From Betaproteobacteria bacterium (GTDB taxonomy: Bacteria; Pseudomonadota; Gammaproteobacteria; Burkholderiales; Ferrovaceae), in NCBI GenBank assembly GCA_018971415.1, contig JAGXAW010000002.1:9261-73260 (forward strand): 64,000 nt of DNA, written 5' to 3'. Position numbers and translations under genes: made by a program. Under the pieces are notes generated by a model. That model was given only the letters and a program-made list of their open reading frames with translations, was not told where the DNA came from and searched no databases. Positions 9,010 to 28,543 of the stretch are shown here, piece by piece. The number at the start of each line of letters is the position of its first letter. Positions within the stretch are counted from its first letter, which is position 1.

Positions 9010-9483
9010 ATGAAAGTAGCTAAGAAGCGGAAGAGAAAGTTGGGTACGCTGGTCTCTGTGCTATCCGGCATCCCCAACATCTGGAGTGCCAGTTCCGTCA
9101 GAACCGAACCCGAGAAGTGGTTGGATAACTGGCAAGTCTATAAAACAATCAAGGCTAACATCCAGCCGGAACTCTTCGGCTACCACTTCGTCGGCCATGA
9201 TATTCGAGGTGGCCATGGTGCTGTTTCCAGCAAGATAGATAGGTTCGATCCTATAAAAATGTGTGGAGTCACCCTAAGCGGTCGTGTGTATCAGCTGATA
9301 GGTATGCCTGGGGTGAACCAAGACGCCCAATATACCTTGAACGGCTGGATCTGTAGAAACGAGGTTGTCATGGAAGATGCGACCGAAGAGTTCGTCCAGC
9401 ATTACAAAATCGATCTGGAACATGTGCGAAAAATGGATATCCGCGATGAGATGGTCTTGTCGCCTCATCGCAAGCAGACGTGA
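9010..9483 (+). CDS. Conserved hypothetical protein
   Basis: SD AGGAG before ATG 9010 (preferred over the 8899 start); HFVG..G.VSS.I..FD....GVT.SGRVYQL.G.PG motif that I recall from mobile-element hypotheticals. Confidence 0.7.
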   Translation: MKVAKKRKRKLGTLVSVLSGIPNIWSASSVRTEPEKWLDNWQVYKTIKANIQPELFGYHFVGHDIRGGHGAVSSKIDRFDPIKMCGVTLSGRVYQLIGMPGVNQDAQYTLNGWICRNEVVMEDATEEFVQHYKIDLEHVRKMDIRDEMVLSPHRKQT

Positions 9484-13139: not shown

Positions 13140-13961
13140 ATGTCCACATTAAAAGCCCACGAAAAAGTCATCTTCGAGAAGCTGTTTGACCGTGGTGGCT
13201 ATGTGCTGAACTTTAATGATCGCACCTATGCCGAATTCTTTCGGGAACACGGCATAAATATCGATGCAGATAAATATCGGGGTAACGGTTCGTCTAAGAT
13301 GAGGCGGCTGCGCGCATTCTGGGAAATTGAATCGGATGTGATTGTTGCAAAAGTTCTGACGGCGATGCTTGAGTATGCGTGTGCGGTCGAGAAAGTCGAT
13401 AGCGCTGATCGAACCAAAGCGATTTCAATTCTCAGTCGTCTATCAGGGAAAGCGCCGAATACCGAGCAATCTGTTCAGACGCAGGAAGAATTTCTCAGAC
13501 AGGTGTTTACCGACCTCAAGCTTGCAAGGCTAAATATTGATGCGCAGTTGCAGTCTGTCATTGAGCAGCGAATTGATGAAATTCACAGGTCGCTCAAATC
13601 TGAAGCAGCACTGGCGACAATCTTTTTGTGTGGCAGTACCTTGGAAGGGCTTTTGCTTGATGCGGCAACCAAACAGCCGCAGCAGTTCAATGCTTCCCAA
13701 TCAGCGCCTAAAGATAAGGATGGGAAGGTTTTGCAGTTGCATTCGTGGACGCTTGAAAACTTGATCAATGTGGCACATGAAGTCGGAATGTTATCGCTGG
13801 ATGTAAAGAAACATGGGCATGCGCTCCGAGACTTCAGGAATTATATTCATCCACGTCAACAAGCTTTCCAGCAATTCCGGCCTGACATGCATACGGCCAA
13901 GATTAGTTGGCAGGTATTGCAGGCAGCTATCGCGAATTTGAGTGGTCAGAGAAAGACTTGA
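13140..13961 (+). CDS. AbiJ-NTD3-like N-terminal domain plus HEPN-like C-terminal domain (candidate abortive-infection RNase)
   Basis: GYVLNF..RT..EFF...I.I....Y...G.SK..RLRAFW N-terminus; C-terminal G..LEG.L and LRDFRNYIHP. Confidence 0.7.
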   Translation: MSTLKAHEKVIFEKLFDRGGYVLNFNDRTYAEFFREHGINIDADKYRGNGSSKMRRLRAFWEIESDVIVAKVLTAMLEYACAVEKVDSADRTKAISILSRLSGKAPNTEQSVQTQEEFLRQVFTDLKLARLNIDAQLQSVIEQRIDEIHRSLKSEAALATIFLCGSTLEGLLLDAATKQPQQFNASQSAPKDKDGKVLQLHSWTLENLINVAHEVGMLSLDVKKHGHALRDFRNYIHPRQQAFQQFRPDMHTAKISWQVLQAAIANLSGQRKT

Positions 13962-24330: not shown

Positions 24331-26244
24331 ATGTACCTTCGGACGGTGACATTGAAGAATACAGGGCCAATCGAGAGCTTCGATCTCACGCTCCCGTTCC
24401 AAGGCGAACAGCCTAAGCCAGTATTGCTAGTTGGAAAGAATGGTAGTGGTAAATCGACGGCGATCTCGTTTGTCGTTAACGCCCTGGTCGGTATGAAGCA
24501 GCATGTATTCGATGACATTGAGGTCGAGAAGGGACGGGTATATCGGATTCGCTCTCCACTCGCCATAAACGGTACTGCAGAATTTTATTTCGCGAGATTG
24601 GCTTTCGATAAAGGTGTGGTCCTCACCGAATGGCAACTCAACCGGCCAAAGACTGAATATGCCGACCCCAGTGCCATGCAAGCACTGGACCCTGCCTGGG
24701 ATCAACTCCCGGCTCATGAGACTAGCTTTTTCAATCTGAATATGGGCAAGCTTGCCGACGCCCGCCTAATGGAGGAAATGCTCGATAAGAATTGCTTGCT
24801 TTACTTCCCAGCTGATCGGTTTGAGCCACCCGATTGGCTAAATATCGAGGATCTCTCCTCTGACTTGAAGCTGCCCGAGCCAGAGCGAATGAAGGGAAGA
24901 ACAACTCGGCGAATATTCTCAAGGAATCGATTGAAGCCAACTCTAGACTGGCTGAATTCCGTCATCTTCGACATGATGGTCAGTGAGCATCATGAAAGGT
25001 TTGTCCCGATAGCACTTCCAGTTACCGAAGACTCACCGGTGCCTCAAGGTAATAATATCGTTTCAGTAAGAGTTAAGGTTCCCGGAAAAGCCCATGCCGT
25101 TTTTTCCTCTATTCAAGATGTTCTAAGGAAGGTCATCTGCGAGAAAGAGACAGACATACTACAACTCGGTATTGGGGATCGTAAGTCACGTATCATCAAC
25201 GCATCAGTGGTGCGCGACGGCACGCCGATTCGAGTCATAAAGGATCTGATGAGTCTCTCAGCAGGCGAAAGCGCACTGTTCTGCCTGTTCGCGTCGATTG
25301 TTAGAGATGCTGATTTGTCCAGTATGAGCTTTCATTCACCGGGCGAAATTGAGGGGCTGGTTGTCATCGACGAGGCCGACATGCACCTGCACGTTGGTCT
25401 CCAGTATCGAGTCCTGCCTGAACTGATCGCCCTGTTTCCCAAGGTTCAATTCATCCTCAGTGCGCACGCGCCAATGGTTGCCATTGGTCTGGAGAACAAA
25501 TTAGGGGAAGATAGCTACGAGATCATCGAATTGCCAGGTGCGACGCATATCCCGCCGGAGTCATATTCAGAATTTCGAGAAGCTTTCAACGTCTTTACCA
25601 AGACCAAGGCTTTCCATGAGGAACTTCTCATGGCAATTTCTTCGACATCTAAACCAATCCTTTTGCTTGAGGGAAAGTCAGATGCCCAATTGGTATCGAC
25701 TGCTTGGATAAAACTAAAACCAGGGACAACGATGCCTTTTGACGTTGTGCCCTGCGGGATTGAGCCAGATGAGGAGAAAAGGTCTGGTGGCGCAGGCATG
25801 CTACGCCGAACGCTGGAATTTCTCTCAGCAGTTACTGACCGTCCTTTGTGTGGCATATTTGACTTTGATAGAGCCGGCTACGAGGGCTTCGCGGGCCTCA
25901 ATAAACACGTTTTTAGCGCAGGCGTGGATGCAGAGCATAAATACCATGCTAAAAAGAAAGTGCACGCATCATTATTACCGGTCCTCACGGAGAGGTCCGA
26001 TTTTGTCAATACGGATAAACCTATCCACAGCTTTATGTCAATTGAGCATTATTTCGCTGACACTGTGCTGCAAAAATTTGGTTTTTCCCTCGCGCCAGTT
26101 GTCGCCGGATCAAAAGTGTTCGAGATCGACGGTACCTCGAAGCAGAAGATTGCGTTCGCCAATGCAGTCAATGAGTTTGACGTTACTGAATTCATGAATT
26201 TTCAGATTCTGTTTGATAGACTTAATTTCATAGGTTTTATCTGA
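24331..26244 (+). CDS. ABC-type ATPase fused to a TOPRIM-like domain (OLD-family-like nuclease)
   Basis: GKNGSGKS, LSAGE, VVIDEADMHLH, QFILSAH; C-terminal LLLEGKSD, GG, FDFD, SIEHYF. Confidence 0.75.
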   Translation: MYLRTVTLKNTGPIESFDLTLPFQGEQPKPVLLVGKNGSGKSTAISFVVNALVGMKQHVFDDIEVEKGRVYRIRSPLAINGTAEFYFARLAFDKGVVLTEWQLNRPKTEYADPSAMQALDPAWDQLPAHETSFFNLNMGKLADARLMEEMLDKNCLLYFPADRFEPPDWLNIEDLSSDLKLPEPERMKGRTTRRIFSRNRLKPTLDWLNSVIFDMMVSEHHERFVPIALPVTEDSPVPQGNNIVSVRVKVPGKAHAVFSSIQDVLRKVICEKETDILQLGIGDRKSRIINASVVRDGTPIRVIKDLMSLSAGESALFCLFASIVRDADLSSMSFHSPGEIEGLVVIDEADMHLHVGLQYRVLPELIALFPKVQFILSAHAPMVAIGLENKLGEDSYEIIELPGATHIPPESYSEFREAFNVFTKTKAFHEELLMAISSTSKPILLLEGKSDAQLVSTAWIKLKPGTTMPFDVVPCGIEPDEEKRSGGAGMLRRTLEFLSAVTDRPLCGIFDFDRAGYEGFAGLNKHVFSAGVDAEHKYHAKKKVHASLLPVLTERSDFVNTDKPIHSFMSIEHYFADTVLQKFGFSLAPVVAGSKVFEIDGTSKQKIAFANAVNEFDVTEFMNFQILFDRLNFIGFI

Positions 26245-26583
26245 AGAGCGAAAATTGTAGCACCATCATTCCGCACCTGCCGCGCTCCGCTTGCCTCCTG
26301 GCTCGTTCGGTTGGAAAACCGGTTGAGAAATTATGGGGATGAGATAAGATTGTCAAACCATACAGGAAACATTGCATGATGAGAATCATGCCAAGCAATG
26401 TGGTGCTAATTTTAGGTCATGTGGGATTAAAACACCTAATTTAAAGCTTTTATTAAGCTAAATTTATCTACTAGTATCGTTGGACAATCAATATAGCGTA
26501 TTAACAAAAATCTAAGAGTTTGCTTAGCGCTTCGGGCTTTTTTCAGTGGTGACTGGAGGCACTTGTTGTAAATCAACTGGCAT

Positions 26584-27546
26584 TTACATTTGCGGGGTTA
26601 TTCCTGGGATTGCTGCTTGGGCAGGAACTGCCCTAAGGACTTGCTGAATTCCAGCCATATGTACTGTCGCAACACCCGTGTGATTCTCAACTATCTTGCA
26701 TGCCGGCGACATAGAAAATGTGTGCATGTAAGCATGATGTACCGTCAAAACCAAGTCTTGCAGTTTTTTGTCATCTTCTAATTTGATTATCTTAAGTCCT
26801 ATTTCTTCACATTTGCTCATCGGTATGTGCCGCGCATGAGCAGCAGTTGCCGAATGGTCCCCTAAAAAATCAACGATCGCATGCGCAGTTATAACGTGTT
26901 CTTCCTGTGCATTGAACATGTTCTCACAAAGCCATCCATGAACCATGGTACGAGACCAATTTATGGCCTGAGCACATTCATTGAGGAATGATGGATGGTA
27001 CCGTGAAACAATTTGTTGCCAAAGAGGCGTGCAAGCAGGATCACGCTTAATACTCTCTACTGCCATCTGGAATTCATCAAGAACCCCTTGAGCCGGAACA
27101 CCGCTTATTTGAGGGTCTATTGGACCTAGGCTTGATTGTTTTCCCAGAACAATCTCCTTGGCCGCACAAGCAATCATTGTCCCAGCTGACATGGCAAGTT
27201 GAGGCACTATGACGCGGATATCTTTCCCGAACATTACCCACAGATATTTGACCAATGCCTCTGTGGCAGCAATATCCCCACCGGGAGTGTGAAGTATTAA
27301 GTCTAGACCTTTATCTCTATTCAGTTGATGAACAGCCGCCATGAACGCATTCATGTCGTCATCACCAACGCTCAAGTTTGGGGTAGATGGCGGTCGAAAC
27401 AGCCATCCGGAATAATACGCAATTACGTTTCTACCTGTGTGAGAATGTAATTGCTTGAGATATTTTCGCCGAACGACGTCTACAGCCTGCATGCCCGCTT
27501 GTTGCTTAGCGCCAATCTCTGAGAGTACTTTTCCCCACGCCGGCAT
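26584..27546 (-). CDS. SDH-family Clp-fold serine protease, cytoplasmic
   Basis: LDLILHTPGG, AMSAGT (Ser), GPIDPQ (Asp), H.RHI (His); no signal peptide. Confidence 0.85.
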   Translation of the reverse strand: MPAWGKVLSEIGAKQQAGMQAVDVVRRKYLKQLHSHTGRNVIAYYSGWLFRPPSTPNLSVGDDDMNAFMAAVHQLNRDKGLDLILHTPGGDIAATEALVKYLWVMFGKDIRVIVPQLAMSAGTMIACAAKEIVLGKQSSLGPIDPQISGVPAQGVLDEFQMAVESIKRDPACTPLWQQIVSRYHPSFLNECAQAINWSRTMVHGWLCENMFNAQEEHVITAHAIVDFLGDHSATAAHARHIPMSKCEEIGLKIIKLEDDKKLQDLVLTVHHAYMHTFSMSPACKIVENHTGVATVHMAGIQQVLRAVPAQAAIPGITPQM

Positions 27547-27547
27547 G

Positions 27548-27772
27548 CTATAAGGTCGATGTGTGTGATTGAATGGTCAGTCGAACATCGGGATCAATCA
27601 AAGAAAATCGCTCGAAAACATGGGACTTGTTTAATGGTTCTGCAACCGAAGACTTAAAGATGCGATTGTAATCGGCAACTAGATCTTCTGGAGAAATTGC
27701 CTTTTTCTGCTCCAAAGCACGAAAAGCTCCGAGCAATATATTTTCGTCAGCAGATAACTTTAGCGTATTCAT
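27548..27772 (-). CDS. Small hypothetical protein coupled to the protease gene
   Basis: 74 aa; TAG-C-ATG junction with the protease start. Confidence 0.6.
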   Translation of the reverse strand: MNTLKLSADENILLGAFRALEQKKAISPEDLVADYNRIFKSSVAEPLNKSHVFERFSLIDPDVRLTIQSHTSTL

Positions 27773-27897
27773 TAATCTTACCCAAAAATTTTAACTAACT
27801 TATAAGTAAAGTATAACGTAAAAATGCTAAAGTATTGTTGTGTAGTGCTTATAGCTTTAGAAAATTTGAGAATTACAGAGTGCGTGTTAAGGTGCTC

Positions 27898-28009
27898 TGT
27901 GGGTGATTATAGCTGCCTCAGTAATTGGGGAAAGAGCCCTACTTTTCCCCACACAAAACCCACACAAATTATTTAAACATTATATTTTTCATTTAAAATC
28001 AAATGGTTA
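27898..28009. repeat. Island-end signature: tandem CCCACACAAA repeats plus an IHF consensus site
   Basis: CCCACACAAA at 27948-27957 and 27959-27968, inverted TGTGGG at 27898-27903, AATCAAATGGTTA (WATCAAN4TTR) at 27997-28009. Confidence 0.55.
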
Positions 28010-28020
28010 TATAATTTATA

Positions 28021-28096
28021 TGGTGCCGACAGTAAGAATCGAACTCACGACCTTCTGATTACAAATCAGCTGCTCTACCATCTGAGCTATGCCGGC
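28021..28096 (-). tRNA. tRNA-Thr(TGT)
   Basis: Full 76-nt cloverleaf, anticodon loop TTTGTAA, TTCGA T-loop, encoded CCA. Confidence 0.95.
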
Positions 28097-28120
28097 CTAA
28101 AAAAACACAATTTTACCTGA

Positions 28121-28543
28121 TTACTTGACGATTGTCAGGTTAGGCCTGGATTTTTTATCACCTAAAGGAGTGTCTTGTTCAAATGCTGAGGGTTGCTCTA
28201 ATTCGCTGGATATTACATCTGATGATTCTTGCTCAACCTCTGCCTCAAAAAACATACCCTCTCCTGTTTCCTTAGCATAGAGTCCAGTCACAGCAGCCCA
28301 GGGTACACTCACTTCTTGAGATACCCCAGAAAAACGAGCATTAAATTGTATAAGATCGTTTCCCATTTGTAGTCCACGACTGGCACTAGGGCTAATGTTC
28401 AGAACAATTTGACCGTCTTTAACATACTGTAATGGAACCCTTGTGTTGTGATTGACTGTCACGTGGATCAATGGAGTGAGTCCATTGTCACAACACCATT
28501 CCCATAATGCTCTGGCTAAGTAAGGCTTGGTTGAGGAAGCCAT
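28121..28543 (-). CDS. sspB: ClpXP adaptor, stringent starvation protein B
   Basis: STKPYL.RA..EWC.DN..TP, IQFNARFSG, C-terminal RP.L.IVK. Confidence 0.95.
   Translation of the reverse strand: MASSTKPYLARALWEWCCDNGLTPLIHVTVNHNTRVPLQYVKDGQIVLNISPSASRGLQMGNDLIQFNARFSGVSQEVSVPWAAVTGLYAKETGEGMFFEAEVEQESSDVISSELEQPSAFEQDTPLGDKKSRPNLTIVK

Follow-up and report, generated by a model that had tools for sequence, protein, structure and literature searches.

Among the DefenseFinder system labels appearing in PMC13532340 is FS_HP_SDH_sah, which denotes a hypothetical protein together with an SDH_sah protease. In this study we analysed a pair of genes of the same composition, located in a 64,000-nucleotide stretch of DNA (positions 9,261 to 73,260 of contig JAGXAW010000002.1, assembly GCA_018971415.1) from a betaproteobacterium of the Ferrovaceae. 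This whole stretch is referred to below as the window, and coordinates are counted from its first nucleotide. The pair consists of a gene for a small protein of 74 amino acids (aa), followed by a gene for an SDH-type serine protease of the ClpP fold. It most likely belongs to a catalogued and mechanistically unexplained kind of module. The initial annotation, which was made from the letters of the window, knew of no characterised system with this composition; in view of the FS_HP_SDH_sah entry, that statement does not hold. Full-text literature searches returned no published mechanism or function for proteins of family PF01972 or for the pair.

The FS_HP_SDH_sah label is said to trace back to the screen of phage-inducible chromosomal islands (PICIs) by Fillol-Salom et al. 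(Cell 2022), and the PICI-borne pair reportedly has anti-phage activity. The likeness of our pair to this system lies in its composition, by which alone the two were matched: a small hypothetical protein is encoded beside, and in the same direction as, a protease of PF01972 (formerly SDH_sah). Like FS_HP_SDH_sah, the pair is accessory cargo of mobile elements, and the carrier of a related copy in Ralstonia resembles a satellite. Unlike the PICI setting, the copy in the window resides on a mobilisable island at a tRNA-Thr gene.

Other pairs of a protease and a partner have been described. NfeD (1510-N) is a ClpP-fold serine protease which cuts the C-terminal region of its operon partner, stomatin. 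It is membrane-bound, uses a Ser-Lys dyad, has a large SPFH partner, is not mobile and shows a weak sequence match to the protease of the window. An NfeD/stomatin pair was rejected as an identification, given that the window protease contains no transmembrane segment, scores 23.8 with NfeD1b_N (cut-off 40) and has no SPFH neighbour. Pepco, EACC1 and CATASP are protease-activated small effectors of defence systems (PMC12642450). They resemble our pair in that a protease gene is linked to that of a small partner, whose C-terminal tail is (in our pair, would be) regulatory. However, sensors (e.g. STAND) are fused to their proteases, which are of the trypsin or caspase type, and the partners form pores, whereas the window pair combines a ClpP-fold protease lacking a sensor with a hydrophilic partner. 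A pore module of the Pepco/EACC1 type was also rejected: there is no trypsin- or caspase-like sensor fusion, and the maximum Kyte-Doolittle score of the partner over 19 residues (KD19) is 0.39.

The two open reading frames (ORFs) of the pair and their junction are as follows:

27548..27772, minus strand: small partner gene (ORF of 74 aa; pI 6.0; soluble product)
26584..27546, minus strand: gene of the SDH-type ClpP-fold serine protease (ORF of 320 aa; soluble product; PF01972 match)
27545..27551, minus strand: TAG-C-ATG junction, read directly from the sequence

Both ORFs lie at the coordinates given in the initial annotation, and direct reading of the sequence agreed with its description of the junction. 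On the minus strand this runs ...ACC TTA TAG C ATG CCG..., that is, the stop codon of the small ORF, one base and the start codon of the protease gene, and no purine-rich Shine-Dalgarno sequence was found within the 15 nt preceding the protease ATG. Judged from these letters, the present copy probably has translational coupling between the two genes. The term “obligatory co-translation”, which had been applied to it, is nevertheless too strong for the family, where the spacing is variable and the order is sometimes reversed. The distance from the small-ORF stop to the protease start ranges from a stop ~60 nt upstream to an overlap of 28 nt. In some Firmicutes the protease comes first, and a good Shine-Dalgarno sequence is present (AAGGAG in locus L043).

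The proposal that the two genes form a genuine unit was upheld by the profile-based detection of a conserved pairing, both in genomes and in viral contigs. The genome set comprised 50 loci encoding relatives of the protease, ~46 of which were usable for pairing. These loci span the Proteobacteria, Actinobacteria, Bacteroidota, Firmicutes, Chloroflexi and Planctomycetes, as well as the Nitrospirae, Elusimicrobia, Deinococcales and Methanosarcinaceae. At nearly all of them, a same-strand ORF of 55-85 aa ends within tens of bases of the protease start. A partner profile was built from close relatives and iterated once, its final version containing 30 sequences. The iterated profile retrieved distant partners, and all of its best matches among 4094 ORFs adjoined the protease. 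With the final version, a partner adjoining the protease was detected in 28 of the ~46 genome loci (24 upstream and 4 downstream). The downstream partners were found in L043, L048, L029 and L049, which represent Christensenella, Agathobaculum and related metagenome-assembled genomes (MAGs) of Firmicutes/Clostridia. Nine more genome loci contain an abutting small ORF in the same layout, beyond the reach of the profile. In L043, a strong AAGGAG site precedes the partner gene, and only a single TAA separates its reading frame from that of the protease gene, the two being in frame.

The protease is also encoded by 280 IMG/VR contigs, and the viral pairing was examined in 80 of these loci. A profile-positive partner adjoined the protease in 19 of the 80, and the profile gave no match elsewhere among their 18,285 ORFs. 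An abutting small ORF was present in 50 of 51 further viral loci, which brings the overall figure to 69/70 among contigs with upstream sequence. Many of these ORFs bear recognisable variants of the partner tail, such as GFEIYTGLDYSLKTAVSTNT or GVLYSYSTVS...LYSY. No conserved third gene was found; the neighbouring genes are unrelated from one locus to another, which argues that there is no third component. The 139 neighbour proteins include integrases, resolvases, several DNA methyltransferases, a type I R subunit, AAA_21/SMC ATPases, MADS genes and products of housekeeping genes. Only ~5 plasmid records contain a full-length relative.

The small ORF had been termed an orphan, a description which has to be abandoned: it belongs to a wide conserved family. 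Used directly as a query, it retrieved 18 clusters of 73-81 aa with 68-86% identity, and the family profile retrieved 188 clusters (50% identity, E <= 1e-3) from 1.84 billion representative proteins. All of the 188 are 51-152 aa long (nearly all 51-110 aa), and the match extends to the C-terminus. Since there are 18 close clusters, and since the ratio of nonsynonymous to synonymous substitution rates (dN/dS) against relatives is 0.19-0.42, the small ORF can be taken as a real gene, beyond a chance ORF. The same ratio points to purifying selection despite fast divergence. The family consensus is I-x-x-x-[YF]-K-K-[LF]-G-I-P ... P-x-Y-x-[ND]-P-x-x-F-A-x-x-F-[KE]-[KR]-[CF]-[ST]-[LI]-L-x-D-x-N-[IV]-x-Y-S-x-S-S. 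The window partner carries ...DLVADYNRIF...VFERFSLIDPDVRLTIQSHTSTL, in which VFERFSLIDPDVRLTIQSHTSTL is the conserved C-terminal motif (F-E-R-F-S-L ... S/T-rich), the most conserved part of the protein.

The 74-aa partner was modelled alone with AlphaFold2 (AF2), using an alignment of 30 sequences. In the model (predicted TM-score 0.29), residues 12-22 and 28-39 form helices, with a predicted local distance difference test score (pLDDT) of ~76-81, and residues 40-74 are coil (pLDDT 62-69). The most conserved stretch of the partner is therefore predicted to be unstructured on its own, which is the signature of a binding short linear motif; the protease would be the obvious candidate for what this motif binds. 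No hydrophobic or amphipathic membrane segment was found in the partner, in line with the KD19 value given above, and the family members are hydrophilic. The partner has no match in Pfam, NCBIfam or PHROG and no recognisable DNA-binding domain. When the small ORFs were aligned jointly with a protease fusion in MAFFT, they were scattered over the protease, and this alignment was discarded.

The second gene product matches PF01972 (SDH_protease), described in Pfam as a ClpP-like SDH-type serine proteinase, with 77.4 bits (gathering score 31.3), in an alignment which covers residues 63-159 only. Weaker Pfam matches were obtained with NfeD1b_N and CLP_protease. The full length of the protein matches phrog_11747 (PHROG 11747, function unannotated; E 3e-94). 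With the NCBIfam equivalog NF047768 (Clp_like_SDH) it scored 88.3 bits, below the curated cut-off of 250. A protein of Escherichia coli Nissle 1917, which was so named by PGAP, scores only 85.5 and likewise falls below this cut-off; the whole protease clade was therefore regarded as a sister group of the NF047768 core. More than 8000 homologues of the protease were identified. The MPxW start is common to 40/40 homologues, which makes the start codon of the window gene secure.

In alignments of 35-46 homologues, the invariant candidate catalytic residues are S120 (AMSAGT), H86 (LHTPGG), D144 (PIDPQ), H237 and H271. A Ser-Asp-His set, as noticed in the initial annotation, is among them, with S120, D144 and, as candidates for the catalytic His, H86, H237 and H271. 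At least 90% of the sequences share K284 and E287. A profile search of PDB sequences gave distant matches to ClpP and NfeD 1510-N only, with S120 aligned with the ClpP nucleophile; by its spacing, D144 may occupy the position of the ClpP catalytic His. The AF2 model of a 49%-identical homologue (L043) has pLDDT >90 across the protease part. The top PDB matches of this model in Foldseek are ClpP (target TM-scores ~0.6), and in BFVD the giant-virus “serine dehydrogenase proteinase” proteins rank first, followed by ClpP-like phage proteases. The architecture comprises a ClpP-like core (~residues 40-165) and an equally conserved helical C-terminal domain (~165-300). Neither a signal peptide nor a transmembrane segment was found in the protease (maximum KD19 1.46). 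Thus, the view of this protein as a cytoplasmic SDH/Clp-fold protease without an export signal was supported by the PF01972 match, the ClpP-like fold of the homologue and the absence of such segments. Its catalytic residues are intact, and on this basis and that of the ClpP-like fold the enzyme looks active. A prohead maturation protease was considered and rejected (NF045542 30.7 bits against a cut-off of 120; the island lacks structural genes).

Related pairs are present in a variety of elements. In Ralstonia pseudosolanacearum, the 74-aa partner is 43% and the protease 79% identical to those of the window, with a TGA-CA-ATG junction. This pair forms the last genes of an element encoding a D5/PriCT primase and the small and large terminase subunits, and core genes adjoin it. 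In E. coli Nissle 1917 (NZ_CP022686.1), the pair lies between the antiterminator Q gene and the holin gene of a lambdoid prophage. It encodes a 68-aa hypothetical protein (WP_001704134.1) and an “SDH family Clp fold serine proteinase” (WP_223938292.1), which is 50% identical to the window protease over 271 residues (E 2e-101). The Nissle partner abuts the protease, has the tail ...V-x-Y-S-x-S-T..., ends in LYSY and lacks the F-x-R-F-S-L element. The two cassettes are thus alike in their proteases, in an abutting small partner with a similar tail and in their moron position. They differ in the missing F-x-R-F-S-L, in the LYSY end and in the spacing, which is 12 nt in Nissle (if the MPNW start is used) and 1 nt in the window. 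The RefSeq start of WP_223938292.1 seems to be ~10 codons short (L136:6237-6279), and an in-frame ATG CCA AAT TGG (MPNW) occurs 12 nt past the small-ORF stop.

Other phages provide further examples. In Porphyromonas gingivalis phages, a 112-aa partner ending in ...FCQFSLYDYSGYETHTTSMIR and the protease are encoded beside HicAB within the structural region. In a Shewanella Mu-like phage, the late regulator C and the lysis genes flank the pair, and in Gordonia phage BeeGee (MW601219.1) the tail genes and the integrase do so. In the BeeGee genome, an unannotated small ORF ending in ...SHVRYSTSATR abuts gp31, an SDH-type protease (L053:4830-5000), where the annotation leaves a gap of 254 nt. The phage copies sit in moron slots beside other cargo, which also speaks against a prohead maturation protease.

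Comparison of the loci revealed that the identities of partner and protease co-vary (Pearson r 0.72), with an identity of ~20% between partners whose proteases share 50-57%. Against betaproteobacterial relatives, dN is 0.42-0.56 for the partner and 0.11-0.18 for the protease, i.e. the partner evolves ~3.5-4 times faster. None of 60 relatives, among them the three other genomes of the genus, has the protease. A near-identical cassette lies on L021, a 2990-bp MAG contig labelled Thiobacillus sp. UBA2487, with 93-97% nucleotide identity to the window. The similarity, which begins 22 nt before the small ORF, falls into three blocks interrupted by small indels; these indels make the dN/dS of the protease against L021 unreliable. 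This copy could have been transferred recently or be decaying, or the contig could have been mis-binned. Judged from its distribution, the pair is a horizontally mobile module, found in bacteria of many phyla and in some archaea.

In the window itself, the pair is surrounded by the following features:

27773..27843, minus strand: cassette-side leader and possible promoter, a stretch which contains the tRNA-side boundary of foreign DNA (homology limits, by-eye reading)
28021..28096, minus strand: tRNA-Thr(UGU) gene (ARAGORN, Rfam), which marks the variable end of the island and lies outside the module
24331-26244, convergent to the pair: PtuA/OLD-like ATPase of 637 aa (AAA_21; PADLOC PtuA models, E 1e-24)

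The DNA from the window start to ~27.8 kb is a GC-mosaic mobilisable island. Its cargo includes a copper ATPase, a type I restriction-modification operon with an inserted AbiE, a MobA relaxase, an HD protein, a DUF2971 protein and the OLD-like ATPase. An ORF at 13140-13961 gave no match in the Pfam scan. Beyond the tRNA-Thr gene lie sspB, sspA and the cytochrome bc1 genes. A genome of the same genus, G002, shares the sequence from the tRNA to window position 27844, and another, G001, only to the 3' end of the tRNA. As the homology with G002 ends at 27844 and the cassette-type homology (with L021) begins at ~27794, the junction between foreign and native DNA has to be placed 180-225 bp from the tRNA gene and not inside it. 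The initial annotation described the pair as the last cargo before the tRNA att end. This is largely correct, the pair being the outermost cargo, but the junction lies outside the tRNA gene, and no att repeat of the tRNA-Thr 3' end (at least 13 nt) was found in the window.

At the same tRNA-Thr gene, G001 (L142, C1:548200-562000) carries a P4-type integrase, a transposase, an OLD-TOPRIM ATPase (AAA_15 + OLD-like_TOPRIM) and a DUF2130 protein, and G002 (L143, C2:269200-280534) carries ISL3 and IS30-like transposases. This site is therefore an integration hotspot in the genus. An exact 13-nt direct repeat, TACTTTTCCCCAC, occurs at window positions 27526-27538 and 27940-27952. The first copy coincides with the first codons of the protease gene; the second belongs to the native tRNA-proximal spacer, within a GGGGAAA...TTTCCCC hairpin. 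The repeat may be due to chance or be a recombination scar.

The leader contains a candidate promoter, TTATAC-17-TAAAAT, which was read by eye and is unlisted by the promoter scan. Between its possible -35 (TTATAC) and -10 (TAAAAT) elements there is an imperfect palindrome of 28 nt (27789-27816), containing the perfect CTTATAAG, which could be an operator. An Rfam scan of 26200-28150 revealed nothing besides the tRNA. The gene of the PtuA/OLD-like ATPase is separated by 340 bp from the protease stop. We rejected it as a component of the pair, as it is not kept alongside the pair at other loci, in agreement with the earlier remark that the protease has no ATPase partner. It is probably an independent defence gene.

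We consider it somewhat more likely than not that the pair serves in conflict or defence, as a module of the FS_HP_SDH_sah kind. An anti-phage or inter-element conflict is its most likely role because it is the same kind of unit as the catalogued system. A defence or toxin-antitoxin (TA)-like logic is the most plausible reading of the pair; the protease-triggered abortive infection proposed in the initial annotation would be a hypothetical form of it. Many loci lie amid housekeeping genes and the association with defence islands is only moderate, which weighs against a defence role. So do several other observations. Many prophage copies occupy late-operon slots, which is compatible with a function serving the phage. 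The protease is strongly conserved along its whole length, without an obvious variable sensor region, and scans of Pfam and NCBIfam gave no match to a sensor family in it. PADLOC gave no match for either protein; as regards DefenseFinder, its HP profile may miss the 74-aa partner because the partner evolves fast. Moreover, the match to FS_HP_SDH_sah is one of composition. Finally, an AF2 model of the natural in-frame read-through fusion of L043 (protease-TAA-partner), used to mimic a complex, gave pLDDT values of only 50-75 for the partner, from which nothing follows for docking.

How such a module might operate can be outlined as follows. The pair is autonomous, consisting of a soluble, ATPase-independent ClpP-fold protease and a dedicated partner of ~60-80 aa. 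Both proteins would be made from one transcript, in the present copy by termination-reinitiation at TAG-C-ATG. The C-terminal motif of the partner (F-x-K/R-F/C-S/T-L ... hydrophobic-x-Y/I-x-S-x-S/T) would then dock on the protease as a substrate or pseudo-substrate and keep it latent. Infection would remove, consume or displace the partner, and the freed protease would cleave a protein of the phage or a conserved one of the host. This latch model is the simplest one because it accommodates a near-obligate pair, a conserved and active-looking enzyme, a fast-evolving partner with a conserved linear motif, coupling and mobile carriers. In its specific form, with binding, latency, trigger and target all inferred, it is a tentative proposal which is more probably wrong than right. 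An extended version is at best equally doubtful: a sensor-less protease immune switch, common to bacteria and archaea, with the fast-evolving partner as the sensor and its disordered tail plugging the protease. It is just as speculative that a phage factor might displace, modify or degrade the partner of such a switch, and that the protease might then cut a universally conserved cellular or virion target.

Several other explanations have to be weighed against a defence module. The pair might be a plain TA (addiction) module without any role in defence, in which the protease is a toxin cutting an essential host protein, the labile partner is the antitoxin, and the carrier element is stabilised. 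The two small genes are tightly coupled with the antitoxin-like one first, and in some lineages their order is inverted, as in some TA families. The pair is similar to type II TA systems in size and coupling, its distribution is mobile and patchy, shaped by horizontal gene transfer, and the small partner looks labile, being fast-evolving and partly disordered. Some copies are also placed beside HicAB and integrases. As regards an antitoxin with a DNA-binding or autoregulatory domain, the partner has two short helices only, and the leader holds the imperfect palindrome, observations which do not decide the matter. No recognisable DNA-binding domain and no family match were found in the partner, however, and the catalogue lists the composition among defence systems; our literature searches found no description of a ClpP-fold protease toxin. 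A pure addiction role is therefore, in our opinion, unlikely, with the proviso that it is not cleanly separable from defence, because many TA modules double as defence systems. We would assign the same low likelihood to the idea that the module serves its carrier phage or element, by degrading a host defence protein or repressor or by tuning lysis and lysogeny, with the partner as an adaptor or specificity factor. Such a role would fit the many copies which temperate phages carry in their late regions (between Q and lysis genes in Nissle, between C and lysis genes in the Mu-like phage, within the structural module in Porphyromonas), the 280 viral contigs and the weak relationship of the protease to ClpP-like maturation proteases of phages. 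Yet the pair also occurs without phage genes, in chromosomal islands, in archaeal genomes and on the mobilisable island described here; moron slots house prophage-encoded defence genes as well, and the catalogue files this composition under defence systems.

Alternatively, the partner could be a pro-peptide, cut at its conserved C-terminal motif to release a fragment acting as an effector or signal, as in the case of Pepco and EACC1. Modules of a protease and a small pro-peptide are an established defence logic (PMC12642450), and the strictly conserved linear motif with its S/T-rich tail resembles a processing site. This possibility is nonetheless very improbable in view of the lack of a hydrophobic or amphipathic membrane segment in the partner, its high variability beyond the motif relative to the protease, which hardly suits a conserved effector, and the absence of a sensor domain from the protease. 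The last of the explanations, an ordinary housekeeping peptidase beside a spurious or unrelated small ORF, can point to a few loci amid housekeeping genes and to a score below the NCBIfam equivalog cut-off. Set against the conserved and specific adjacency of the partner across phyla, the absence of the pair from all 60 relatives and the near-identical copies in unrelated taxa, it appears effectively refuted.

To conclude, the protease family revealed by this analysis is very large (more than 8000 matches, 280 viral contigs). It extends over several phyla and more than one domain, with prophages, satellite-like elements and islands as its carriers. The window adds to it an ordinary, intact-looking instance, located at the tRNA-Thr edge of a mobilisable island with multiple defence genes. 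The presence of a dedicated partner in nearly every copy, together with its conserved, predicted-unstructured motif and the invertible gene order, suggests that the partner is a latch or a substrate of the protease. E. coli Nissle 1917, with its 50%-identical copy, constitutes a tractable laboratory model. If the sensor-less switch outlined above were true, it would represent a new mechanistic class of protease immunity, which differs from the systems based on caspase, trypsin and Lon proteases.

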